From a virus, in the IMG/VR virus record IMGVR_UViG_3300045988_000846, positions 1 through 18,128 of that record: a stretch of DNA of 18,128 nt; one strand, written 5' to 3'. Position 1 is the first letter of the stretch. Every line of letters starts with the position of its first letter. Shown one piece after another: positions 1 to 18,128 of the stretch. Below the pieces are notes generated by a model. It was not told the DNA's origin, did not search any database, and worked only from the letters and a program-made list of their open reading frames with translations. Both the position numbers and the translations under genes were made by a program.

Positions 1-202
1 AAGGAGGGGAGGGGTCCCAGCAGCTATCCTTTTTCCACAACTGCTCTATCCTGTGTTTTGCATTGCTGTTGCTTTGTGTGTTTTTGTATTGCCGTTGTTC
101 TCTGTGTTTTTCGTTTCCGCTCTCTTTGTGTTCGTTTCCTTGTCTTGTTTTGTCTTCGTTTTTTTGTGTGTTTTGGGTGTGTTGTTTTTTGTGGCGTGTT
201 AT
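1..202. repeat. Left inverted terminal repeat (ITR-L), 202 bp
   Basis: Positions 1-202 (AAGGAGGGGAGGGGTCCCAGC...GTGGCGTGTTAT) are the exact reverse complement of 17927-18128, compared base by base. Identity breaks at 203 (G) versus the complement of 17926 (A). The repeat starts at the first base of the window. Confidence 0.97.
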
Positions 203-205
203 GAT
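197..205 (+). promoter_or_regulatory. Extended -10 promoter-like element TGtTATGAT straddling the ITR/unique boundary
   Basis: TG-n-TATGAT at 197-205. The first 6 nt lie inside the ITR and the last 3 in unique DNA. The predicted start near 212 gives a ~29-nt leader carrying AAGGAAGGAAG (222-232) before ATG 241. There is no good -35. Confidence 0.45.
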
Positions 206-240
206 GTGAGTATCAACCGATAAGGAAGGAAGTAAATAAA

Positions 241-441
241 ATGATTAACAACAACATCATCAAGGATTACGTTGAGGATTACATCTTAAATAGTAATCAA
301 TTCATTGATGAGTTTGACGTTGATGCGATTGTTGAAAATCTGCATCATGTGGCCTTGGTTAATGATATAACTATTGAGGGATATGACGATTGCGATTCGT
401 TTCCGGCTGATGATTTTACGGAAGCGTTCAAGGAAGCGTGA
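241..441 (+). CDS. Small, very acidic early protein (66 aa), function unknown; possible DNA-mimic or host-takeover protein
   Basis: ATG 241 is preceded by a strong SD (222-232). Composition is 17 Asp/Glu, 2 Lys and 0 Arg. The gene is visibly AT-rich compared with the genome core. It is the first gene inside the left ITR. Confidence 0.8.
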   Translation: MINNNIIKDYVEDYILNSNQFIDEFDVDAIVENLHHVALVNDITIEGYDDCDSFPADDFTEAFKEA

Positions 442-2396: not shown

Positions 2397-2415
2397 CACG
2401 ATTGTCCGCACCGTA

Positions 2416-2450
2416 TGATATCATGGCAATGTCCCTATAGGGATGTTGCC
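2416..2450 (+). promoter_or_regulatory. Intergenic element: extended -10-like TGaTATCAT followed by an 11-bp hairpin
   Basis: TGaTATCAT at 2416-2424. The hairpin pairs GGCAATGTCCC (2425-2435) with GGGATGTTGCC (2440-2450), giving 9 Watson-Crick and 2 G-U pairs. It lies in the 120-nt gap between the SSB-like and TP-like genes. No U tract follows. Confidence 0.3.
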
Positions 2451-2516
2451 GCCAGACTCACCCCCCGCCGTTTCCATCCTTGCGGCGAGGGGTGTTTCAT
2501 ACTCACAGGGGGAACC

Positions 2517-3461
2517 GTGGCAAAACGCAAAAACCGCCGACGCGCTGACATTCTGAAACGCAACGCCGCAATCAGGTCGGCACAGGTACGCCGAGACCGG
2601 GCAGTCGGGGATTACAGTACCGGACGCCTCCCCAAGCGAATCACCGAAACGTTTTTAGGAAATCTCAGTGCCCAACAGCTTGAGCAGGTGGCACGACGTA
2701 TCGGGCAGGAATTCGGAGAACAACAGCAAGCCTTGAGGGCGCGGGATAATGAGCCGTATCAGGTTGTCCCAGATGTTCATATTACGAAACTTGATCGTGA
2801 GATGGCCGCGCGTCCGCTGATAACTGATGCGGAAATCGCCGCCGCCCCGTCGAAACGTCGGAAAACATTGCGGCAGCAGCAGCGCCGCAGAGTTGAGGCA
2901 CGGCAGAAGATTAAGCGTGCCCAACAATTCGAGGCGCTGAGTATGGCCCGCTATACCGTGGGTGAAATGCGTGAAATGGAACGCGCGGGGGAATCTCCGT
3001 TCGACGTGTTAGGCACTCACACGGTCGGCGGTTCGGCACGTGACGAACTCATGCGAAGCCGTGCGAACGTGTTCAGTACAGAGCGTGGAATAAGCCATGC
3101 TCGTACGATGATGCGAGAAGGGAGCCGTAGGAAACTTGAGCGAGAAATGCTTGAATACGCCGGACTTATTGGACGTGCGCCATTACGCGCGGGAACTAGG
3201 CGTATCCCCGAGAACGAGGGTGTTTCTGATTTCGATAAGGTCGCGCAGCAACTTGAAGCATTCGATTTTAGTGTTGCTCAAAGATTCGCCGCCTTGTCGA
3301 ACCGTCAAAAACGATGGCTGATAAACAACACGAATTTCAGCACCGTAGTACGCGAGGCAACATGGTATAATGATAAGGCACACAAATGGGAGACTAAAGC
3401 AGACGCGGGAGATGTAGAGGCACGACTTGATGAATGGATGACCAGCGCAGCAAGACACTAA
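2517..3461 (+). CDS. Putative terminal protein (protein primer), ~314 aa
   Basis: It lies immediately upstream of, and overlaps, the polymerase ORF, the conserved TP-pol arrangement of phi29-type phages. The N-terminus is strongly basic (VAKRKNRRRADILKRNAAIRSAQVRR). The rest is Arg/Glu-rich and looks helical. I chose start GTG 2517 after AGGGGGA; the ORF is open from ATG 2415, so the start is uncertain. Sequence similarity to phi29 TP is not evident by eye beyond the basic N-terminus. Confidence 0.55.
   Translation: MAKRKNRRRADILKRNAAIRSAQVRRDRAVGDYSTGRLPKRITETFLGNLSAQQLEQVARRIGQEFGEQQQALRARDNEPYQVVPDVHITKLDREMAARPLITDAEIAAAPSKRRKTLRQQQRRRVEARQKIKRAQQFEALSMARYTVGEMREMERAGESPFDVLGTHTVGGSARDELMRSRANVFSTERGISHARTMMREGSRRKLEREMLEYAGLIGRAPLRAGTRRIPENEGVSDFDKVAQQLEAFDFSVAQRFAALSNRQKRWLINNTNFSTVVREATWYNDKAHKWETKADAGDVEARLDEWMTSAARH
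3363..3371 (+). promoter_or_regulatory. Consensus extended -10 (TGgTATAAT) inside the 3' part of the TP gene
   Basis: A perfect TGnTATAAT at 3363-3371, ~105 nt upstream of polymerase ATG 3476. It could be an internal promoter for the polymerase or a chance match. Confidence 0.25.
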
Positions 3462-3475
3462 AAAAGGATGGAATC

Positions 3476-4936
3476 ATGCGAGAGCGTCGAACGGCGGTAA
3501 CAGACGGCGCAACACTATTAACGGATGACGGCATAACGCCATTGACGGTGAATGCCGTCATTCGGCTAACCATGCTTGATCATCATACGCGCGTATGGTG
3601 CGCTCACGGATGGCAGGACATCAAGCCCATAGCCGCTCAACTATTGAAACGACTGCCATTGCAATCGAATCCGGCCAAAGATGGAGTCTGGGGCACTTTC
3701 AACATTCGTGGCCATTTCTACAGTTTCCGCGTGCGCATGGGCGGCATCACCGTGGATTTTCTGGACGTGCGCAACATCACGCGCGACGATGGACTGAATG
3801 TTTCACGTGAAACGTTTGGCGGCGCGGATGACTTGGAAACCACGTGGAATATCGCGCAGGAATGCGACGCCCTAAACCTCAAGGGCAATACAATAGCGTC
3901 CATGGCAATGGGCGATTATATCGGCGGGGATTACGCAGGATTCAAACGTCACTTCCCTCCATTGGATAAAGCGGAATATCATCGGATGCGCCCCGCATAC
4001 TATGGGGCGATAGTGTACAGCAGGCCGGGTGAATATCGGGATTGCAGGAGTTGGGACGTGAACAGCCTCTATCCGGGTATCATGCGCGACTTTGCCATGC
4101 CGGTAGGATCTCCCGTTTGGTATGAAGGGGAATATTATTATGACGCTGATTATCCGCTGCATATCGATGTTATCGCGTTCGACGCGCGACTGAAAACGGG
4201 AAAAACGGCGACACTCACAAACATCCTACCCGTATGGGGGTACGAGGGCGAACGTATGGACAGCACGTTGGGCGTCGTCACCATGCCGGTGGCCGACGTG
4301 GATTGGCAGACCTTGACGGAAAACTATGATGTCCATGTGTGGGAGTATATCGGCGGTTGGAAATTCCGTAAATCGCATGGACTCTACTACGAGTATGTGG
4401 ACAAATGGTTCCACGTGAAACAAACCGCAACCGGCGAGCGTCGGCAAATGGCGAAACTATTGCTTAATTCGTTGGTTGGGAAGTTTGGAGCCTCGCTTTA
4501 TCGGCCCATGCTGCACCCAAAGCCTTCTGGCGATGGCGGCGTGGATTTTACTGTAGACAAACCTGAGTCAACCAACTCGCTCGCATGGCTACCAACCGCC
4601 GCATATGTCAACGCCTACGGTCGGCAAATATTGTCACGCGCGATGAACGCGAACGCCGGTCGTGTGCTCTATGCCGATACGGACGGCATGATACTGGACG
4701 GACTGGATGCGCCTGCGGATATCGAAACGGACGATAGGAAACTGGGCGCGTGGAAAAACGACCACACCTATGGAAAACTTCGTATTCTCGGCAATCGCAA
4801 ATACTGCGGTGTGGAGACGGACGGCGGCACGGTGATGCGGTTGAGTGGCGTGCATCGGGCATCCCCTATCCACTACGACGACTTCCTTCCGAGGTCGCGC
4901 CATGTCAATGATGACGGCTGTTTTTTTGTGCTATGA
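3476..4936 (+). CDS. Protein-primed family B DNA polymerase (phi29 gp2-like), 486 aa
   Basis: ATG 3476 follows AAAAAGGATGG; the ORF is open from 3434. Motif A is WDVNSLYPGIM, motif B is KLLLNSLVGKFG and motif C is LYADTDG. A long collinear match to phi29 pol includes SPVWYEGEYYYDADYPLHIDVIAFDARLKTG against EPIVFEGKYVWDEDYPLHIQHIRCEFELKEG. A TPR2-like insertion lies between motifs B and C. The C-terminal VNDDGCFFVL matches VDDTFTIK. Confidence 0.93.
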   Translation: MRERRTAVTDGATLLTDDGITPLTVNAVIRLTMLDHHTRVWCAHGWQDIKPIAAQLLKRLPLQSNPAKDGVWGTFNIRGHFYSFRVRMGGITVDFLDVRNITRDDGLNVSRETFGGADDLETTWNIAQECDALNLKGNTIASMAMGDYIGGDYAGFKRHFPPLDKAEYHRMRPAYYGAIVYSRPGEYRDCRSWDVNSLYPGIMRDFAMPVGSPVWYEGEYYYDADYPLHIDVIAFDARLKTGKTATLTNILPVWGYEGERMDSTLGVVTMPVADVDWQTLTENYDVHVWEYIGGWKFRKSHGLYYEYVDKWFHVKQTATGERRQMAKLLLNSLVGKFGASLYRPMLHPKPSGDGGVDFTVDKPESTNSLAWLPTAAYVNAYGRQILSRAMNANAGRVLYADTDGMILDGLDAPADIETDDRKLGAWKNDHTYGKLRILGNRKYCGVETDGGTVMRLSGVHRASPIHYDDFLPRSRHVNDDGCFFVL

Positions 4937-5467: not shown

Positions 5468-5489
5468 CGATTAGAAAGGAATGACTATC

Positions 5490-7220
5490 ATGGCAACCAC
5501 TCCCGTGGTGACGCCGAAGCAGCAGCTTCGACCGCTCACCGAGTTCAACAACGCTCAGATTCTCAACATGATTCGCAACGAGGCGTCGCCGGAGTATCAG
5601 CGGCGAATGCCCTCGGCCACTCAGATGAACATGGATAGGCAGATGGCTACGCTTATGTCGTCCACCCAGCTTAAGAACGAGTTTTATTCGGCGTTGGTGA
5701 ACCGCATCGGCGGCACCTACGTGAACACGTGGCGTTGGAACAATCCTCTTGGCGTTTTCCAGCGCGCATCGCAGGCGTATGGCGATACGTGGCAGGAAAT
5801 CGCCGTTGGAATGCCTCTTGCGCAGGTCTACGACCCTAATGCGGAATATCTCGGCGCGGATAATTTCCGCAAGTGGAAAATCGACGTGGATTCACTCTAT
5901 CACCGTCTTGACTTCGCTCACTGGTATCCGGCGACCACGGATGACAAGACGTTGCAGCGTGCCTTCACTTCCGAAAACGGTTTGGCCTCGCTCACTTCCC
6001 AGATTCTCACATCCTGCTACAATGCGGCTGAGGTTGACTTGTTCGAGGCCATGTGCCACCAGTTCGTCGAATACGCGAAGCTCGGCGGATATTGGCGCGT
6101 CCATATGGATAACGATCTGAACAACATGGGCAGTTCGGAAACGGACGCCCGCGATATGCTGCGTCAGATTCGCGCATGGGCCGACACGCTTAAATTCGTC
6201 AGCACCAAGTACAACGCCCGTCACATGCCGACCTTCGCCCGTCCGGATGAACTTGTGCTGTTCTGTTCCCCGGAAGTCAAGTCGGCGCTTGACGTGCAGG
6301 GCCTCGCCACGGTATTCCAGCGTACGGACGCGGAGCCGACAATCGACCGGATTATCGTCATTCCGCAGGACAGGTTCGGCATGGATGGCGTGCAGGCCAT
6401 TTTGACTACCGACAAGTTCCTGATTGACATTCCCGTCATCAACGAGATGACCCAGCAGACAAATCCGGTGAACATCAATTCAGTCAACCATTACCTGCAT
6501 GTCCAGCACATCATCTCAGTGTCCGGCTTCGCCCCGGCTGTGATGTTTTGGACGGGCGCCGGTTCCACTGCGAACGTGGTGGCTCCCACCGGCACGCAGG
6601 CTCAGGCGCCGACGTTCCAGCTCAAGCTCGCCATGTATGGCGGCGGCACGACCACGCCGGAGAATGTGGCGCGTGGTGGCGCGGTGCAGGTCACTGCCGA
6701 TACGACCATCGGAAATGACGGTACCGCCACGTTCCGCTCGGATGCGGTTGAGTATCGTATCGGAGACACCGCCAAGCCGAAGAGCGATTACACGTATATC
6801 TCGCCCACCGGCGTGCTCGTGGTCGGCCTTGACGAACCGAACACCACTATCCCGGTGACGGCGACCGCCTTGTACACGAATCCGGCGACGCCGGAAGTGC
6901 CGGGAACCGTGTCCGCGGCTCTGGACGTGCCAGTGGTCGGTGACGGTGTCATCGGATTCAACCCGTCCATCGTCGCGTCCATTGCCGTGACCGTACCGAA
7001 CGTGACCGTAGGACATACGGCGCAGGCCACCGCCGTGGCGACCATGATTGACGGTCGTACCGCCGACGTGACGGCACAGGCGGCATGGACGTCCGGCACT
7101 CCGGCGAACGCCACCGTGTCCGAGTCGGGCGTGGTGACCGGTGTCAAGGCGGGCGGATCTGATATCACCGCCACACTGTTCGGCGTGTCCGGTAAGAAGA
7201 GCGTGACCGTGACGGCGTGA
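5490..7220 (+). CDS. Major capsid protein with C-terminal Ig-like (Big_2-type) domain(s), 576 aa
   Basis: ATG 5490 lies 9 nt after GAAAGGA; ATG 5481 is an alternative. It occupies the position after the scaffold gene, as in phi29 gene 8. The C-terminus TAQATAVATMIDGRTADVTAQAAWTSGTPANATVSESGVVTGVKAGGSDITATLFGVSGKKSVTVTA matches the bacterial Ig-like group 2 pattern. phi29 gp8 also carries a BIG2 domain. Confidence 0.85.
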   Translation: MATTPVVTPKQQLRPLTEFNNAQILNMIRNEASPEYQRRMPSATQMNMDRQMATLMSSTQLKNEFYSALVNRIGGTYVNTWRWNNPLGVFQRASQAYGDTWQEIAVGMPLAQVYDPNAEYLGADNFRKWKIDVDSLYHRLDFAHWYPATTDDKTLQRAFTSENGLASLTSQILTSCYNAAEVDLFEAMCHQFVEYAKLGGYWRVHMDNDLNNMGSSETDARDMLRQIRAWADTLKFVSTKYNARHMPTFARPDELVLFCSPEVKSALDVQGLATVFQRTDAEPTIDRIIVIPQDRFGMDGVQAILTTDKFLIDIPVINEMTQQTNPVNINSVNHYLHVQHIISVSGFAPAVMFWTGAGSTANVVAPTGTQAQAPTFQLKLAMYGGGTTTPENVARGGAVQVTADTTIGNDGTATFRSDAVEYRIGDTAKPKSDYTYISPTGVLVVGLDEPNTTIPVTATALYTNPATPEVPGTVSAALDVPVVGDGVIGFNPSIVASIAVTVPNVTVGHTAQATAVATMIDGRTADVTAQAAWTSGTPANATVSESGVVTGVKAGGSDITATLFGVSGKKSVTVTA

Positions 7221-7228
7221 TATAATGG
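7217..7228 (+). promoter_or_regulatory. GTGATATAATGG box (consensus extended -10) overlapping the capsid stop codon
   Basis: TGaTATAAT at 7218-7226, with the capsid TGA at 7218-7220. The identical 12-mer recurs at 9635-9646. Confidence 0.4.
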
Positions 7229-7232
7229 GAGG

Positions 7233-7313
7233 GTAGCCGGTTGGCTACTCTCTCTCACGGTGTGATGCAGGACAAGGCCCGGAGCGTTATCCACGTGATT
7301 GCTCCGGGCCTTG
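7233..7313 (+). terminator. Two hairpins after the capsid gene (partial terminator/attenuator or 5' leader structure)
   Basis: Hairpin 1 pairs GTAGCC (7233-7238) with GGCTAC (7243-7248), has loop GGTT and is followed by TCTCTCTC. Hairpin 2 is a perfect 13-bp stem pairing CAAGGCCCGGAGC (7273-7285) with GCTCCGGGCCTTG (7301-7313), with a 15-nt loop. There is no clean U tract. Confidence 0.45.
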
Positions 7314-7331
7314 CCATACCGGAGGATAATA

Positions 7332-9638
7332 ATGATCGACGACGCTAACCCTTACGTGGAATCTAATTTTTCTTGGGCGGAATGGACGCCAAACACGACG
7401 TTGAAACTCTGCCGCGTGCCATGGGATGCTTCATACCGTGATATCGTGCGGTTTGTTTCACGTGAAACACAGCGGGAATGGTTCGACGAACTGGACGGCG
7501 TGGAATGCCGTCCGGCCACCATGCATGTTTTCGGCGCCCCCGTTCGTATCGACATGCCATTTAACCAAGCGTCAAACTATAATTACCTTGTCGCCGTCAA
7601 TGATTACCCCGAACTGGAATCGCCACGCGCTTGGTATTATTTCATCGAATCCGTGGAATACATTAACGCGCACGCCACACAACTCACGCTTATGCTGGAC
7701 GTATGGCAAAGTTTCCAGTTTGACGTGAGTTTTGGCAGTTGCTATGTGACGCGCGGCCATATCGGCATCGCCAATGAACGCCAATGGGACGATTACGGGC
7801 GTACCACGCTTGCACTGCCGGAGGGACTGGACACCGGCGCGGAAACCGTCGTTACCTCACAGTCATATACGACGCTTATATCCAGCAAGCCCGCGCAGCC
7901 CGGGTTTAACTCACCAACCTTGGATTATGGTGTCATTGTCGTGGCTACAACCGATCTTGCGGTGTCGGGCGGTAGTACTGAAAAACCGTCGTTGAAAACC
8001 GCGCAAGGCTCACAATTCGAGAATCAATCCAATGGCGCGGGGATTTATTATTTTGACACCGCCGACGATTTCACGCGCGTTATGCAGGCGGGAAGTTCGT
8101 ACCCGTGGGTCACTCAGGGCATTACGGCGATCTACGCCATTCCCAAAATCAGCGCCGACTATATAGCCGACGCCGGTAGAGAGGTAACGCAATTTTTTGG
8201 CAACGACGTGGCCGGCGTGGTTAAAGGGCATGTGTATACGTTTATGTGGGAGGCTAGAAGCGATAACAGGTATGACGATATTGTCTCTATCAAGAATTTT
8301 CGCAATAACTTCAATATCCCCAAACGGTATCATAATCTGAAAAAACTACAGTGCTATCCGTATAGCGTCGTGGAATGTTCGTGCCTGAATGGCTCGAATG
8401 TCATCTATCGACCCGAAGATATCCAGTCCAATGACTTGGTTATCCGCGAAACGTGGAATTACGCGCCGCCGTCTCCGCGTTTGAACTTTTACCCGGTGAA
8501 CTACAATACGTCAGGCGCGCGCGCCGTTTCCTCCCCGTCCGGGAACGGTACCGGGCTGCCGATCGATGGCGGGGAAATGCTTAACGTCAGTTTCGGTATC
8601 ACGAACTTCCCTCAGTTCATGGTGGTGAATAACGGGGCCTCGCTTGCTATGGCGAACAGCGCATACGCTCGCGCATATGCGGAGCAGTCGGCCGGATGGG
8701 CGCAGCAGAAAGCGACCATGAGCGCGGCAAACGCATTATCTCAGGCCGGTACGGCGATTCGCACCCAGCAGGAGATGACCCAACTGGGTATCACCAACCG
8801 TAACGCGCTGAATGCCATCGCGGCCAACTCGCTTAACCAGTCGTTGGCTATCGGGCAGGCGAACACCAACGCCATGACCGACCTGAACGTATCACAAAAC
8901 AACGCGCGAACCGCGTGGGGGCTGATTTCCAATGCGGGTAGCGCATTGGCGTCAGGGAGCGTGGCCGGACTGATTGGCGGCGCCGTCGGCGCCGTCGGCG
9001 GCATCGTGCAGAACGACATCACCAACAAGGGACTGTACGCGAGTCGTGACATCGCCAACGATACGGCAGCTGCAAACACCGCCAACAGTGTGGCGACCAA
9101 CGCGGCGCAAACATCGCAGGCGAACACTTACGCGCAACGCGCACAGCAGATTCAGGGCGCGTCCAGCGCTCTGATGGCCGGGCAGAACTATCGGTTGGCC
9201 ACGCGCTTTGCCGAAGGGGATTATGAGAACTCCATAGCTGGGATCAACGCTCAAGTCCAGCAAATGCAGATGACCCCGCCGACTACGAGCGGTTCGGCGG
9301 GCGGCGACTCGTTCAACCTCGCTAACGGTATTATGGGCGTGTTGGTCCGTTTCCGCACGTGCGCCCCCAGCGCGTTGCGTTCGGTTGGCGAATTCATGTT
9401 GCGTTTCGGGTATTTTGTCCAGCGTTTCGTCACCCCGCCCGCAAGTTTGCAATGTATGGAGAAATTCACGTACTGGCAGATGCAGGAATGCTATATTAAA
9501 GGTACGCTTCCCGAACAGGCGCGGCTAACCATTAAGGGCATGTTCGAGCGTGGTGTGACGGTTTGGAGCAAGCCCGAGTATATCGGCGTGACCGACTGGG
9601 CGGACAATGATCCACTTCCGGGCATTGGCTACGAGTGA
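7332..9638 (+). CDS. Tail knob / distal tail tube protein (phi29 gp9-like), 768 aa
   Basis: ATG 7332 follows GGAGGA; the upstream part of the ORF lies in the hairpin. The N-terminal match is YNYLVAVNDYPELESPRAWYYFIESVEYINAHATQLTLMLDVWQSFQFDVSF against phi29 gp9 [49 protein letters not shown]. The C-terminal match is FMLRFGYFVQRF...FTYWQMQECYIKGTLPEQARLTIKGMFERGVTVW against FFHKYGYKINRV...[34 protein letters not shown]. Confidence 0.88.
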   Translation: MIDDANPYVESNFSWAEWTPNTTLKLCRVPWDASYRDIVRFVSRETQREWFDELDGVECRPATMHVFGAPVRIDMPFNQASNYNYLVAVNDYPELESPRAWYYFIESVEYINAHATQLTLMLDVWQSFQFDVSFGSCYVTRGHIGIANERQWDDYGRTTLALPEGLDTGAETVVTSQSYTTLISSKPAQPGFNSPTLDYGVIVVATTDLAVSGGSTEKPSLKTAQGSQFENQSNGAGIYYFDTADDFTRVMQAGSSYPWVTQGITAIYAIPKISADYIADAGREVTQFFGNDVAGVVKGHVYTFMWEARSDNRYDDIVSIKNFRNNFNIPKRYHNLKKLQCYPYSVVECSCLNGSNVIYRPEDIQSNDLVIRETWNYAPPSPRLNFYPVNYNTSGARAVSSPSGNGTGLPIDGGEMLNVSFGITNFPQFMVVNNGASLAMANSAYARAYAEQSAGWAQQKATMSAANALSQAGTAIRTQQEMTQLGITNRNALNAIAANSLNQSLAIGQANTNAMTDLNVSQNNARTAWGLISNAGSALASGSVAGLIGGAVGAVGGIVQNDITNKGLYASRDIANDTAAANTANSVATNAAQTSQANTYAQRAQQIQGASSALMAGQNYRLATRFAEGDYENSIAGINAQVQQMQMTPPTTSGSAGGDSFNLANGIMGVLVRFRTCAPSALRSVGEFMLRFGYFVQRFVTPPASLQCMEKFTYWQMQECYIKGTLPEQARLTIKGMFERGVTVWSKPEYIGVTDWADNDPLPGIGYE

Positions 9639-9646
9639 TATAATGG
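9635..9646 (+). promoter_or_regulatory. GTGATATAATGG box (consensus extended -10) overlapping the tail-knob stop codon, 6 nt before the portal ATG
   Basis: TGaTATAAT at 9636-9644, with the knob TGA at 9636-9638. The hexamer ends at 9644 and the portal ATG begins at 9651. There is no SD in between, which is consistent with a leaderless transcript. Confidence 0.5.
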
Positions 9647-9650
9647 CAGT

Positions 9651-10601
9651 ATGAGCAGGTCTAAAAAGAATCGAGTCGGCGGCGCGTTGCACCCGCGCGG
9701 CAATTACGCGAAAACACGCGCCGTCACGCTTGATGACATGTATCTTCATTTGCTGATGGAACTCGCGTTGAACCGTTTCAGTTGGCGCGGATTGCCGCCC
9801 ACTGTGGACGAACGTTGGCTGGAAATATGTCTGTGCGAATACGGTTGCGCGCTGTTTTTCGAAGACAAACGTATCGGCAGGTTCCTTGTGACTCAGGCGG
9901 GCTATCAGGGCAGACTGAACGTGTACAATAATCCGACATGCTTCGAGCCGGTAGGCGTCAACTACCATTACAGGCAACTCAAGGCCGGTTCGGAATGCAT
10001 CCCCATTTGGGACAATCGAATGCGCGTCGGATTCAAACCGACATTATGGCAGTACGCGCGACGCCTTGCCGATATCGACAAAGCGTACGATGTGAACTTG
10101 GAGAGTCTTAAACTGCCGACCATCATAACCGCCGACCCCCGCACCAAGCTCACCGTGCAGAACATGCTTCAGCAACGGCAGGACGGTCAGGACTATATCA
10201 TAGGATACGATTCGCTTGACCCCGGCAGTATGTTCCAGCCGTGGCCGAACACCACGCCCTATCTGCTGGATAAGTTTATTCAGCAGAAAGCACAGGTGAC
10301 TAACGAAGTGTTGGGGTATCTCGGCATTCAATCGTCCGGCACGGAAAAAAAGGAACGGCTGATCTCCGACGAAGTTGCGCAGGCCAATGAGAAAACAGAC
10401 GTGTTCCGCTTGAGTTTCCTCAAGGCGCGGCAGGCTGCGGCGACCGAGATTAACCGATTATGGCCGCAACTGAACGTGTGGGTGGAATACGCGGACGCGC
10501 AAAGCTCCGGCGTGCCGAACGCGCTTGATTCAAGCGCAAGCGGTACGACGGATATTGACATGCCAGCATCATACGACGCGGATATCGGAGGTGTATTGTA
10601 A
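9651..10601 (+). CDS. Portal / upper collar connector protein (phi29 gp10-like), 316 aa
   Basis: LALNRFSWRGLPPTV matches phi29 gp10 LAYQLFEWENLPPTI. YLGIQSSGTEKKERLISDEV matches [20 protein letters not shown]. The N-terminus is basic (MSRSKKNRVGGALHPRGNYAKTR), like the pRNA-binding N-terminus of gp10. Confidence 0.93.
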   Translation: MSRSKKNRVGGALHPRGNYAKTRAVTLDDMYLHLLMELALNRFSWRGLPPTVDERWLEICLCEYGCALFFEDKRIGRFLVTQAGYQGRLNVYNNPTCFEPVGVNYHYRQLKAGSECIPIWDNRMRVGFKPTLWQYARRLADIDKAYDVNLESLKLPTIITADPRTKLTVQNMLQQRQDGQDYIIGYDSLDPGSMFQPWPNTTPYLLDKFIQQKAQVTNEVLGYLGIQSSGTEKKERLISDEVAQANEKTDVFRLSFLKARQAAATEINRLWPQLNVWVEYADAQSSGVPNALDSSASGTTDIDMPASYDADIGGVL

Positions 10602-11395
10602 TGGCACAGGATTTTAGCGCCTACGCGATGACGACGCCGGGGGAGTACACCGAAACCCTCGGTAATCTTATCGCATTCGGCTATGATACCGACGACAAAC
10701 TGCATCTTAGCGCCGATTATTACCCGATTTACGACGAATCTCATCGCGCGGAATTAAATGAGAAGATTATCCGCCATTACGCGCTTAGGGAGATAGGACA
10801 GGAAACCGCGCAGCAGTTCGTTTTCTATCTGGGTATGACAATGGCGGAGATCATGCCCTATTTCAACGAACGCTATCGGACACTGGACATGGAATATGAT
10901 CCGCTGGACTCCATGGACATGACAACGGACAGTGAGAGCGACAGCGAATCCCAGTCGTCTGGTAGGGCATCCAGTACGCAGGACTCTAACAGCAGCAGTA
11001 CCAGCAAGTCGGATAATTCCAGCACCACCACGTCAAAGAGTTTCGACAGTGACGTGCCGCAGACCGGCGTCGTGGGCGACTTCGCACGCTACGCGAGCCA
11101 CGCGAACGAGTCGCAGGCGAACAGCTCCGGCACGGCATCCAGTTCTCAGGATTCAACCAGCCACACCACCGCACAAAGCGCAACCGACTACCAGCATGAT
11201 TCAAACAATTCCAAGGGCAAGAGCCATGTGACCGGGCGCAGCCAAAGCGCCATGAGCCTGATACAGGAATACCGGAACGCCATCATCAACGTGGACATGG
11301 AAATCGTACGGAGCCTTGAGCCGTGTTTCATGCAGGTGTGGGGTTCGTATGATACAATATTCAGCAACTGCCATAACTATGGAGAATGGGAGTGA
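10601..11395 (+). CDS. Lower collar protein (phi29 gp11 position), 264 aa
   Basis: The ATG overlaps the portal stop (TAATG) and follows GGAGGTG. Position and size are as in phi29 gene 11. The N-terminal pattern YPIYDESHRAELNEKIIRHYALREIGQETAQQFVFYLGMTMAEIMPYFNERY is typical of lower collar proteins as I remember them. The central part is Ser/Thr-rich. Confidence 0.7.
   Translation: MAQDFSAYAMTTPGEYTETLGNLIAFGYDTDDKLHLSADYYPIYDESHRAELNEKIIRHYALREIGQETAQQFVFYLGMTMAEIMPYFNERYRTLDMEYDPLDSMDMTTDSESDSESQSSGRASSTQDSNSSSTSKSDNSSTTTSKSFDSDVPQTGVVGDFARYASHANESQANSSGTASSSQDSTSHTTAQSATDYQHDSNNSKGKSHVTGRSQSAMSLIQEYRNAIINVDMEIVRSLEPCFMQVWGSYDTIFSNCHNYGEWE
11350..11358 (+). promoter_or_regulatory. Extended -10-like TGaTACAAT inside the 3' end of the collar gene
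   Basis: TG-a-TACAAT at 11350-11358, ~40 nt before ATG 11398. It may drive the fibre module or be a chance match. Confidence 0.25.
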
Positions 11396-15297: not shown

Positions 15298-15306
15298 TGG
15301 TATCAT
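15298..15306 (+). promoter_or_regulatory. Extended -10-like TGgTATCAT upstream of the ATPase gene
   Basis: TG-g-TATCAT at 15298-15306. The second in-frame ATG (15314) lies 7 nt after the hexamer. Neither ATG 15305 nor ATG 15314 has a convincing SD. Confidence 0.35.
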
Positions 15307-16411
15307 GGATAGTATGGAGAAGCTGTTAAGCGAGGGCGATTACTACGGTTATGGGCGCGTGCTGTCCTATCACGCGCCTTGGATGTTCGTCATCGGCGCG
15401 CGCGGCCTCGGCAAGACCTATGGTGCTAAAAAACTGGTCATAGGCGACTGGATTAAAAAACGCTGGCAATTCATCTACCTACGCCGAACGGCAGAGGAAC
15501 AGAAAAACAAAGGGACTTGGTTTGCGGACATTGCAGAGCAATACCCGGAATTAGAGTTTAGGATATCCGGCAATCAAGCCGAATGTCACTGGCTGGATGA
15601 CAGGGACGCCACCGCAGGCAAGCACGGCAAGAAACGCCCAACATGGCACATCATGGGATATTTTATCGCCCTATCACAGGCCGGACAGGTGAAATCGGTT
15701 GCCTACCCCAGAGTACGCACCATTGTCTTCGACGAAATATTCCCCGATAATATGCGATACCTTGGCGGAGAGGTCACGGCGCTTGAGGAATTTTACAACA
15801 CGGTAGACCGCTGGAATGACAGGGTTCGCGTTATCATGTGCAGCAACGCCGTAACGTTGGCTAATCCGTATTTCAGCGCGTTTAATATCAATCTAAAACC
15901 GCAGCTGGATAATCACGTGCAATATCAGCGATATTGCGACGGGTTTATTATGGTGGAATTAGCTGATTACGGCGGATTCAGCGCCAAGGTTGCCACATCC
16001 AAATTCGGACAGTTTCTACGCAGATACGACGAAAATTATGCGAATTATGCAATCAATAACGGTTTCAGGGATAACGCCAATGCTCTCATTAGTGATTTCA
16101 AGGACGCCGGATATGCGTTCACATTAAGAACCACCGAATACGGTATTTTCAACGTATATCAGCAATTAAGCGACACCGACGAAGTGCTATATATAATCAC
16201 AAAAAAACAACCGAAAATCACCCGTAATTTCACGTTCGATTATCGACTTGTAGACAATAATTGCATAATGCTCAAGCGCTCCGACGACATGACGCAAAAA
16301 ATACTGAACGCCTATCGCGTCGGTAGATTACGGTTTGAAACCCCGCAGATTAAAGCGGAGTTTAGCATGATTCTTGGCGGCTTATTACAACAATCAGGCA
16401 TAAGAAAGTGA
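15305..16411 (+). CDS. DNA packaging ATPase (phi29 gp16-like), 368 aa (365 aa if started at ATG 15314)
   Basis: VLSYHAPWMFVIGARGLGKTYGAKK matches phi29 gp16 MLSYDRILNFVIGARGIGKSYAMKV (Walker A). VRTIVFDEIF is Walker B. RVRVIMCSNAVTLANPYFSAFNI matches RVRCICLSNAVSVVNPYFLFFNL. The C-terminal RVGRLRFE matches NGYLRFD. Confidence 0.93.
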   Translation: MDSMEKLLSEGDYYGYGRVLSYHAPWMFVIGARGLGKTYGAKKLVIGDWIKKRWQFIYLRRTAEEQKNKGTWFADIAEQYPELEFRISGNQAECHWLDDRDATAGKHGKKRPTWHIMGYFIALSQAGQVKSVAYPRVRTIVFDEIFPDNMRYLGGEVTALEEFYNTVDRWNDRVRVIMCSNAVTLANPYFSAFNINLKPQLDNHVQYQRYCDGFIMVELADYGGFSAKVATSKFGQFLRRYDENYANYAINNGFRDNANALISDFKDAGYAFTLRTTEYGIFNVYQQLSDTDEVLYIITKKQPKITRNFTFDYRLVDNNCIMLKRSDDMTQKILNAYRVGRLRFETPQIKAEFSMILGGLLQQSGIRK

Positions 16412-16419
16412 GGAATATA

Positions 16420-16782
16420 ATGATGCAAGCGGACATATGGTGCACCATTGCAGCCATGTTTTTCATTAGCATCGACTACGTTACTGGCGTAGTAAAAGCA
16501 ATCATGCGGGACAATCTGAGTTCGCGAAAGATGCGTGAGGGACTAGGGCACAAGTTCGCCTATCTTATGCTTGTGCTGGTGGCATGGTTCATCGACGAAG
16601 TGAACCGGCATATCGACTTAGGACTGCCAATGTCCGTATTTGTCTGCACGGTCGGCGGAGTCTGTCTAATCGAACTCACGTCAATACTCGAAAACGTCAC
16701 CGAAATCAATCCCGAATTAAAAAACGCGCCATTTATGCGGATTTTCGCTCAATCCACAAGTGGTAAGCACGGGGCGGAATAA
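16420..16782 (+). CDS. Holin (phage_holin_4 / TcdE-like pattern), 120 aa
   Basis: ATG 16420 lies 6 nt after GTGAGGA. It has three hydrophobic segments: IWCTIAAMFFISIDYVTGVV, FAYLMLVLVAWFI and MSVFVCTVGGVCLIELTSIL. The motif DYVTGVVKA....LSSRKMREGLGHK is typical of that holin family. It lies immediately upstream of the endolysin, with a TAATG overlap. Confidence 0.8.
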   Translation: MMQADIWCTIAAMFFISIDYVTGVVKAIMRDNLSSRKMREGLGHKFAYLMLVLVAWFIDEVNRHIDLGLPMSVFVCTVGGVCLIELTSILENVTEINPELKNAPFMRIFAQSTSGKHGAE

Positions 16783-17570
16783 TGGACGGCGTGAAGTGGA
16801 TAGGCTCGCCAAACCACTACAGTGGACGAGCCGGACATAAGGTGACACACATCACCCTACATATTATGGCCGGTTTTCTGGCAGGTACCGATAGTGTGTT
16901 CTCACGTTCATCCAGTCAGGCGAGCGCACACTACGGCGTCGGAGCCGGTGGCGAAATACATCAATATGTTGACGAAACTAATGGCTCGTGGTCTGATGCC
17001 AATTACGAGTCAAACATGTCAACTATCAGCATCGAGCATGAAGGGGGTATAGCGCAAGCGCCATGCACGCAAGCATGTATCGACGCCAGTGCTCGACTTT
17101 GCGCCGATATAGCGCAACGTTACGGACTAGGCATGTTATGGCATGACGGGACACGTGGTAACGTATGGCTACATCGAGAAATCAGCGGCACCGACCACGC
17201 CACATGTCCAGACCTAGCACCAAACGGGCTACCATACCAGCAAGTGATCGACAAAGCCAACAAGATAATAGGAGGTACAACAATGGCTAGCGCAGGGGAT
17301 GAAGTTTGGAACTGGGCATACAAGCCAGACGGGAAAAACGCGACACCGGGCGGCAATATGTACAATCTACTTAACTACGAACTGCCGATACGCATTCGGG
17401 ACAGCATCATGCAATATAACTTCAAAAACACCGCGCCGGGGGGCAACGTTTACAACACTCTTTGCTTTGAAATACCCGGAATGCTGAAACAACTCGCCAA
17501 AACAATCGAAGAACAGCAAAAGCAAATCGATGCGCTGACCGAAAAAATCGACAAACTGCAAAAAATCTGA
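16782..17570 (+). CDS. Endolysin: N-acetylmuramoyl-L-alanine amidase (Amidase_2/PGRP type) with an unusual repeat plus coiled-coil C-terminus, 262 aa
   Basis: HITLHIMAG, SAHYGV, TISIEHEG and LHREISGTDHATCPD match the T7-lysozyme-type zinc amidase pattern (His, Tyr, His, Cys). The C-terminus has two ~18-aa repeats (ATPGGNMYNLLNYELPIR and TAPGGNVYNTLCFEIPGM), then LKQLAKTIEEQQKQIDALTEKIDKLQKI. Confidence 0.9.
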   Translation: MDGVKWIGSPNHYSGRAGHKVTHITLHIMAGFLAGTDSVFSRSSSQASAHYGVGAGGEIHQYVDETNGSWSDANYESNMSTISIEHEGGIAQAPCTQACIDASARLCADIAQRYGLGMLWHDGTRGNVWLHREISGTDHATCPDLAPNGLPYQQVIDKANKIIGGTTMASAGDEVWNWAYKPDGKNATPGGNMYNLLNYELPIRIRDSIMQYNFKNTAPGGNVYNTLCFEIPGMLKQLAKTIEEQQKQIDALTEKIDKLQKI

Positions 17571-17588: not shown

Positions 17589-17626
17589 AAGTAAAGCCCC
17601 TAGGATTACGCCTAGGGGGCTTACTT
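17589..17626. terminator. Bidirectional terminator-like hairpin between convergent genes
   Basis: The core stem pairs CCCCTAGG (17597-17604) with CCTAGGGG (17611-17618), with loop ATTACG. After a 2x2 internal loop the stem extends by 6 more bp, pairing AAGTAA (17589-17594) with TTACTT (17621-17626). It lies between the endolysin stop (17570) and the stop of the minus-strand gene (17635). Confidence 0.7.
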
Positions 17627-17634
17627 GTTATATA

Positions 17635-17892
17635 TCAGTCGCCGTTATCGATCGAGATAACATACTTGCGGCACGGACGCCCCTTTTTCGAGAGGCCCTG
17701 AGCAACCTCAATATAATCATAATCAAAGCTCAACATTAATTCAATAACCGAAGAGAGAGCAGAGTCAAAAGTGGTAACAGAGTCGTCAATCAAACCATTA
17801 TCACGAACAGTACCAGTATACACATCTTCAATACCGACTTTATATACATTATCCGGCTCAATCTCGATAACGTAAGCATTAAACTTATTCAT
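17635..17892 (-). CDS. Small acidic protein (85 aa) transcribed inward from the right ITR, function unknown
   Basis: The minus-strand ATG at 17892 is preceded by GGGAAAGGAAAAAA. The longer ORF-track start at 17919 would translate the SD region. It has 15 Asp/Glu and 8 Lys/Arg. It is AT-rich relative to the core. The N-terminal pattern FNAYVIEIEPDNVYKV faintly recalls HicB/UPF0150-type folds, which is very tentative. Confidence 0.75.
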   Translation of the reverse strand: MNKFNAYVIEIEPDNVYKVGIEDVYTGTVRDNGLIDDSVTTFDSALSSVIELMLSFDYDYIEVAQGLSKKGRPCRKYVISIDNGD

Positions 17893-17923
17893 TTTTTTCC
17901 TTTCCCTAGAAGCGGACAACTAC

Positions 17924-17932
17924 AGTATAACA
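17924..17932 (-). promoter_or_regulatory. Extended -10 TGtTATACT straddling the right ITR/unique boundary (mirror of 197-205)
   Basis: The minus strand reads ...GTGGCGTGTTATACTGTAG. TGtTAT comes from the ITR and ACT from unique DNA. The predicted start near 17917 gives a ~25-nt leader with an SD before ATG 17892. Confidence 0.45.
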
Positions 17933-18128
17933 CGCCACAAAAAACAACACACCCAAAACACACAAAAAAACGAAGACAAAACAAGACAAGGAAACGAACA
18001 CAAAGAGAGCGGAAACGAAAAACACAGAGAACAACGGCAATACAAAAACACACAAAGCAACAGCAATGCAAAACACAGGATAGAGCAGTTGTGGAAAAAG
18101 GATAGCTGCTGGGACCCCTCCCCTCCTT
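17927..18128. repeat. Right inverted terminal repeat (ITR-R), 202 bp
   Basis: It is the exact reverse complement of 1-202 and ends at the last base of the window. Confidence 0.97.

Follow-up and report, generated by a model that had tools for sequence, protein, structure and literature searches.

Predicted inward-facing promoter-leader modules at the ends of a phi29-like podophage genome and the position of its terminal repeat boundary

The genome discussed here has a long inverted terminal repeat (ITR), and at both ends the exact repeat stops within what looks like an extended -10 promoter element, pointing into the genome and standing ahead of a small gene. A preliminary description took this to be one promoter core that is used at both ends to drive inward transcription, and held that a repeat boundary falling exactly inside a -10 hexamer was unlikely to be accidental. 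Two questions are raised by this, the first being whether the two ends do carry inward promoters, and the second whether the repeat ends inside them for a reason. We refer to the DNA analysed, which is the whole virus record of 18,128 bp, as the window.

The genome and its probable host

The window is in the IMG/VR class of records with inverted terminal repeats, and is a complete linear genome of a phi29-like podophage, probably protein-primed. It has phi29-type structural genes together with a family-B polymerase and a 202-bp ITR, and its GC content is 0.54. The genes referred to are as follows.

1959-2396, + strand: SSB
2415-3461, + strand: 348-aa ORF in the terminal-protein position, without a family match
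3434-4936, + strand: family-B DNA polymerase, matching the PHROG DNA-polymerase family phrog_1907
5481-7220, + strand: major capsid protein
7299-9638, + strand: tail protein
9651-10601, + strand: upper collar/connector
10601-11395, + strand: lower collar
15305-16411, + strand: packaging ATPase
16408-17570, + strand: holin and endolysin

The only gene on the - strand is that at the right end (17635-17892), all others being on the + strand. The host is probably a gut Bifidobacterium, as both the nearest cultured phages and the endolysin match point there. Among cultured phages the closest are podophages of Bifidobacterium, the polymerases of which are about 35% identical to that of the window, and the endolysin is 76% identical to a sequence from a B. 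angulatum assembly. Megablast of the whole window against cultured phages gave no match.

The terminal repeats and the physical ends

1-202, + strand: left ITR, exact copy, with the real end probably 2-3 A farther out
17927-18128, - strand: right ITR, exact copy

Positions 1-202 are the exact reverse complement of 17927-18128, a perfect identity that is partly built in because an assembler merges the two ITR copies into one. The exact repeat terminates in ...GCGTGTTAT, and the first mismatch is 203 against 17926. Beyond 202 the two ends agree at 18 of the next 34 positions, and a repeat search extends the arms to 236 nt at 93% identity. Since the ends keep matching past 202, the boundary is simply the first mismatch within a longer, diverged repeat. 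Inside the ITR, at 56-111, there are two adjoining direct repeats of about 30 nt, TTTTGCATTGCTGTTGCTTTGTGTGTTTTT and TTTTGTATTGCCGTTGTTCTCTGTGTTTTT, which show up in the repeat search as cross-matches between the two ITR copies.

To judge from other contigs, the ITR of the window is the true genome end and not an assembler artefact. Independent contigs of relatives terminate in AAAA(A)GGAGGGGAGGGG, that is 5'-AAAA(A)GG, and the window begins AAGG. In contig L171 (1-35 and its mirror) an Illumina adapter directly abuts AAAAGGAGGGG at both ends, and this junction marks the physical DNA terminus of the phage group, 5'-AAAAGGAGGGGAGGGG. The ends of the relatives and the adapter junction together indicate that the window is therefore short of only about 2-3 terminal A. 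Adapter sequence is also attached to the ends of contigs L195, L234, L189 and L191.

In many of the related contigs (L163-L238) the terminal inverted repeat is exactly as long as an assembler word (55, 99, 119 or 141 bp); such repeats still mark a real point of divergence, yet show that the copies were collapsed in assembly. The same is seen in a public record, as the "complete" genome of BD811P2 (L253 = NC_073478.1) has a 55-bp repeat (1-55 and 17773-17827) that begins within the promoter module described below. Records with word-size repeats lack about 150-200 bp of each real end. In the BP1 record (L254 = PQ571273.1) about 1-291 holds a second copy of an internal part of gp1 and then Illumina adapter (...ACACTCTTTCCCTACACGACGCTCTTCCGATCT), and genuine terminal sequence comes only after the adapter, so that the start of this public record is an assembly artefact. 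Many database genomes of this phage group thus have ends truncated by the assembler.

Given such records it might be argued that the exact boundary in the window, and perhaps also the pairing of its two end genes, is itself a product of assembly, with strains joined at the module and repeat copies collapsed. The word-size repeats, including that of the deposited BD811P2 genome, and the adapter at the ends of several contigs are in keeping with this, as is the presence of many related strains in the same IMG data set. However 202 bp is not a usual word size, the window contig reaches the physical terminus seen in independent contigs, and the cultured phages show the same architecture. Further, since branching in a de Bruijn graph occurs where sequences first truly differ, the boundary at 203 is real on at least one molecule, and we regard an origin in assembly as improbable.

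Predicted promoter-leader units at the two ends

166-240, + strand: left promoter-leader module (nhmmer E=5.7e-19), comprising A-free G/T tract, TGn, -10, predicted +1, A/G-rich leader and SD
197-205, + strand: left extended -10, TGtTATGAT (TGTTATGAT), with hexamer TATGAT at 200-205; ITR identity stops after base 3 of the hexamer
212, + strand: predicted left transcription start, an A 7 nt past the hexamer, placed by conservation
222-232, + strand: left SD, AAGGAAGGAAG
241-441, + strand: first left-end gene, 66 aa, 17 D/E against 2 K/R, GC 0.37, without a family match
17893-17963, - strand: right promoter-leader module (nhmmer E=6.3e-13), of the variant class with TATACT and leader GTAGTTGTCCGC
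17924-17932, - strand: right extended -10, TGtTATACT (TGTTATACT), with hexamer TATACT at 17929-17924
17917, - strand: predicted right transcription start, a G 7 nt past the hexamer, placed by conservation
17898-17906, - strand: right SD, GGGAAAGGA
17635-17892, - strand: right-end gene, 85 aa, 15 D/E against 8 K/R, GC 0.40, without a family match
17597-17618, both strands: bidirectional intrinsic terminator (CCCCTAGG...CCTAGGGG), separating the endolysin gene from the right-end gene

The preliminary description had the end of the ITR completed by unique DNA to TGtTATGAT on the left and TGtTATACT on the right, with an SD and then a short AT-rich gene for an acidic protein after each, and all of this is present in the sequence, with the SDs at 222-232 and 17906-17898. 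The distance of about 25-29 nt given there needs a small correction, as the SD cores begin about 17-18 nt past the hexamers. The start codons are at 241 (left) and 17892 (right), with the ATGs 35 and 31 nt past the hexamers.

A search for a canonical -35 near TTGACA at 16-18 nt gave a best match of 2/6 (GTGTGT, at 17-nt spacing) and none that was acceptable, and a consensus promoter scan of the window listed neither terminal site. With no acceptable -35, promoter strength would therefore rest on the TG and the -10; a -35 is not required for the extended -10 class. The terminator at 17597-17618 closes the right-end transcription unit, and its hairpin is also present in relatives and in BD811P2 and BP1.

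Two other observations on the window can be given here. There is a weak module-like match at 475-530 (GTGTGTTGTTGG...TTTGGCATGATATAG), found by relaxed nhmmer at E=10, which is not significant and was not counted; the module-like stretch in 475-604 precedes a 22-aa hydrophobic ORF at 536-604 (MLDIVCWTAVVVVVSVVLVSYL) and may be a decayed copy of the module. The string TGNTATNNT occurs 17 times in the window against 7.5 expected, a number reached in 1 of 200 shuffles. The copies are mostly on the coding strand at gene junctions (7218-7226, 9636-9644, 3363-3371, 1904-1912), and there is a perfect TGATATAAT over the stop codon of the capsid gene and another over that of the tail gene. These copies are probably extended -10 promoters too, situated inside the genome.

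Conservation of the module

About 60 whole related contigs were fetched by means of the connector protein and searched with a profile of window 165-243. Modules were compared over about 45 of the related contigs and over three Bifidobacterium phages in culture. The contigs all come from metagenomes and often from the same IMG data set, so that full independence of the lineages cannot be assumed. Neither Eggerthella phage LE1-1 nor BD811P1 could be used, the BD811P1 record being without both termini and starting inside genes.

There are 85 nhmmer matches to the module in the window and about 44 relatives. Those on the + strand are all within 340 nt of the left end and those on the - strand all within 640 nt of the right end, with no internal or outward-facing copy among the 85. 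The module is present at both ends in 35 genomes. Some genomes have extra tandem modules at the right end, 370-640 nt from the end, each ahead of another small ORF with an SD.

The conserved module is about 60 nt long. It opens with a G/T tract that has no A, after which come the extended -10, the predicted +1, which is a purine, and a leader rich in A and G that contains the SD. When the 64 unique variants are anchored on the hexamer, T-12, A-11 and T-7 are present in all 64, T-10 in 62 and A-8 in 56, and position -9 is free to vary (A in 6, G in 27, T in 31). Invariant T-12, A-11 and T-7 with a free -9 are the signature of a sigma-A -10 box. The TG extension is also well kept (T-15 in 59/64, G-14 in 56/64), being shifted by one base in about 8 of the 64. 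There is a purine 7 nt past the hexamer in 61 of the unique variants, and T at -1 in 62, in keeping with a Y-1/R+1 start. The leaders, of about 25 nt, are A/G-rich and have no conserved RNA structure (mean z -0.43 over 70 unique leaders).

Two features go beyond this. First, A is absent between -40 and -13 from all 64 unique variants, and in the window the top strand of the ITR interior is nearly A-free over 45-199 and its mirror; this strand asymmetry must have a cause other than the promoter, perhaps replication or protein binding. Second, T-A-T-C-A-R-C-C around the predicted +1 (window 208-219) is kept even in BD811P2 and BP1, the proteins of which are only about 35% identical to those of the window. 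This conservation is more than a promoter needs and no RNA structure accounts for it; TATCARCC may be an operator for a phage or host regulator, or reflect a constraint on the initially transcribed sequence.

With regard to the cultured phages, each end of BD811P2 and of BP1 carries the module, despite polymerases only about 35% identical to that of the window, and BP1 has a second copy about 500 nt from its left end. That copy lies after a terminator and before the next gene, which is the behaviour expected of a promoter. In the honeybee phage BadAztec1 a 259-bp ITR spans TGTTATATTAT, the SD and ATGA before the ends diverge. As the layout is shared by BD811P2, BP1 and BadAztec1, the architecture is common to Bifidobacterium phi29-like phages in general.

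Is the module a promoter?

In B. breve the promoters have bases 1, 2 and 6 of the -10 as the most conserved and most important, with a weaker -35 (PMC5746004). The module resembles the B. breve promoter map and the extended -10 class in having TG at -15/-14, invariant T-12, A-11 and T-7, a -35 that is weak or absent, and a purine at the predicted start 7 nt downstream (PMC5746004). It differs from the general extended -10 consensus (TGnTATAAT) in the A-free G/T tract upstream and the conserved TATCARCC at +1.

The proposal of an inward promoter at both ends has fared well in that there is a promoter-like extended -10 ahead of the first gene, that it is conserved over the 64 variants and that 85 of 85 copies face inward. 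An inward early promoter at each end is well supported by this comparison, and it is from sequence that we infer that the modules are active promoters, that they act early and that they start transcripts at A212 and G17917.

Our reading of the two ends, to which as a whole we give a probability of about 0.75, is that they carry conserved promoter-leader modules giving inward early transcripts, and that the ITR edge is mobile through copying. Each end would consist of the terminus and origin, the A-free G/T-rich tract, an extended -10 without a usable -35, a leader with SD, the ATG and a small variable gene. The module would be a portable unit of about 60 nt read by the host primary-sigma RNA polymerase, with transcription probably starting at A212 on the + strand and G17917 on the - strand, and its leader would be short, unstructured and A/G-rich with a strong SD. 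Early transcripts would run inward from both ends, that on the left carrying on into the replication genes and that on the right ending at the terminator 17597-17618.

The alternative is that the module serves mainly in replication or in nucleoid-protein binding, for example as a binding or nucleation site for a p6-like protein, terminal protein or polymerase, or that it is an operator, and that the likeness to a -10 is incidental. The module is about 200 nt from the ends and adjoins the A-free tract that needs another cause, TATCARCC is conserved past promoter needs, and in phi29 the end-proximal C2 promoter is repressed by p6, which binds near the genome ends (PMC11476376). However the extra modules 370-640 nt from the right end and the BP1 copy about 500 nt from the left end are each directly ahead of an ORF with an SD, the module is always oriented towards a gene, and the positions that are fixed and those that vary are as in a -10 box. 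We therefore think it unlikely that the likeness is incidental; an operator that overlaps a promoter fits the promoter reading and is no true rival to it.

Position of the repeat boundary

Taking the boundary as the first mismatch between the ends, its position relative to the -10 could be called in 33 genomes, the window and 32 relatives. It lies upstream of the -10 in 6 of them and within TGnTATNNT in 2 (the window and L208). Another 3 have it between -10 and +1, and 16 have it in the leader, the SD or the first codons. In the remaining 6 it is past the whole first ORF, and the five contigs among these that extend to the terminus have exact ITRs of 354 to 546 bp. The range is from 54 nt upstream to 338 nt downstream of the -10. 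ITR length is thus plastic in this phage group, from less than 200 bp to at least 546 bp, and in some genomes the ITR takes in an entire gene. With the boundary in the box in only 2 of 33 genomes, the view that its position there is unlikely to be accidental does not hold, and by this comparison the boundary inside the -10 is an accident of the window genome, its placement not being conserved.

There is also a reason for a boundary to be seen at this base. The module is near-invariant from about -40 to -10, and -9 is the first free position, so any copying tract that ends in that stretch appears to end at -9. In the window the end of the tract can be placed more closely. Both window modules carry the rare C195 and T199. 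All other modules with TATGAT and GTGAGTATCA have G at -13, and T at -13 is typical of the TATACT class. As C195 and T199 are common to both window copies, homogenisation reaches at least to 199. On these bases the left module is a chimera, of right-hand type upstream and left-hand type downstream, with the joint between 199 and 203.

We suggest that the ITR is the stretch currently identical between the ends, that copying or recombination from end to end maintains the identity, and that the inner edge shifts as a result. In the window the copying tract would have stopped between 199 and 203, inside the -10, joining the right-hand-type TGT-TAT to the left-hand-type GAT-GTGAGTATCAACC. The mechanism of copying could be panhandle repair of a displaced strand, or recombination between ends.

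That selection placed the boundary inside the -10, with a shared core that each end completes in its own way, perhaps so that the two are tuned differently, is very improbable: although L208 breaks at the same base with another right-hand variant (TGGTAT-GAT against TGGTAT-TAT) and three further genomes break no more than 9 nt past the start of the hexamer, the other 31 of 33 genomes have the boundary elsewhere over the range given, even past a whole first gene, the near-invariance upstream of -9 makes tracts seem to end there, and in Cp-1 the boundary is in the spacer and not the -10.

End genes and possible cassette exchange

Pfam and PHROGs gave no family for either of the terminal genes of the window. 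Both terminal-gene families show the excess of third-codon-position differences that is expected for real genes. The ORFs directly behind modules in the window and relatives fall into at least 19 families, and the small early end genes are likely to be host-takeover or anti-defence genes.

The family of the right-end gene is at the right end in all 16 of the relatives that carry it. The family of the left-end gene is at the left end only in the window, L208 and L168, at the right end only in L181, L221 and L227, and inside the ITR, hence at both ends, in L164, L175 and L196. A complete small gene is included in the ITR, and so present in two copies, in L164, L175, L179, L190, L196 and L234. 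The exact repeats with a gene are 354-546 bp where the contig reaches the terminus, and the identity ends on the stop codon or only a few bases from it (at the stop codon in L164, L179, L190 and L196). Overall the boundaries of the ITRs tend to fall where the first gene starts or where it stops.

The families and boundaries suggest that cassettes may be exchanged at the module. Both ends must keep the module, and this would give homology between the ends of one genome and also between co-infecting phages. Small early genes might then be swapped in as cassettes running from promoter to stop codon, and be moved between ends, or be duplicated onto both when an ITR copying tract runs through the gene. 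That the module doubles as a recombination platform, with telomere-based exchange of early-gene cassettes in a protein-primed phage, we put forward tentatively, with somewhat less than even confidence.

We know of no transcription map for the virulent Bifidobacterium podophages, and the module offers a concrete early-promoter and leader sequence for them, as predicted from sequence. It is present in the cultured phages BD811P2 and BP1 and is directly testable there, and it could serve as a compact expression signal for Bifidobacterium genetics.

Comparison with known systems

Phage phi29 has an inward end-proximal early promoter, C2, at the right end only, where host sigma-A polymerase transcribes small early genes inward and p6 represses the promoter, and its ITR is of 6 bp (PMC11476376). 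It differs from the window in that with so short an ITR the promoter is not part of it, and in that the left early genes are transcribed outward from the internal A2b/A2c promoters, so the arrangement is not symmetric.

Adenovirus (E1A and E4) and the tectivirus PRD1 also have protein-primed linear genomes with early units that run inward from beside both terminal repeats. Their polymerases and promoter types differ from those of the window phage and they are analogies only. We found nothing specific in the literature on promoters inside the ITRs of PRD1 or of Bifidobacterium podophages.

The best comparison is with the Streptococcus pneumoniae phage Cp-1, for which we used the annotated record NC_001825.1 (PE1/PE2 on the left, PE4/PE5 on the right). 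Like the window it has a long ITR and belongs to a protein-primed podophage. One strand holds nearly all of its genes, with a few small ones converging on them at the right end, and, again as in the window, there are mirror-symmetric inward promoters at both ends before different first genes. The exact ITR is 236 bp, with a -35 TTGACA at 222-227 inside it and the -10 at 245-250 outside; the -10s carry TGn (TGCTATAAT on the left and TGATACAAT on the right), and the mirror copy at the right end has the annotated start site PE5 at 19087. Near-identity runs past the ITR to about 350, through a second promoter and almost to the SD. In both phages exact identity ends within a promoter and an imperfect repeat continues inward, in the window with 18 matches over 34 nt. 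The break in Cp-1 is in the spacer between -35 and -10, whereas that in the window is after base 3 of the -10. Cp-1 also differs in having canonical TTGACA -35 boxes and two tandem promoters per end. Its host is a low-GC Firmicute and sequence similarity to the module is not expected. The general layout of Cp-1 was reportedly described already in the 1990s.

An inner edge of the ITR that cuts through an inward early promoter shared by both ends is thus already known, being of the Cp-1 type. In contrast to Cp-1, the module of the window is a family-wide portable unit standing before at least 19 families of small genes, and our analysis suggests that what is added to the Cp-1 type is this portable promoter-leader module together with a possible exchange of cassettes between ends.
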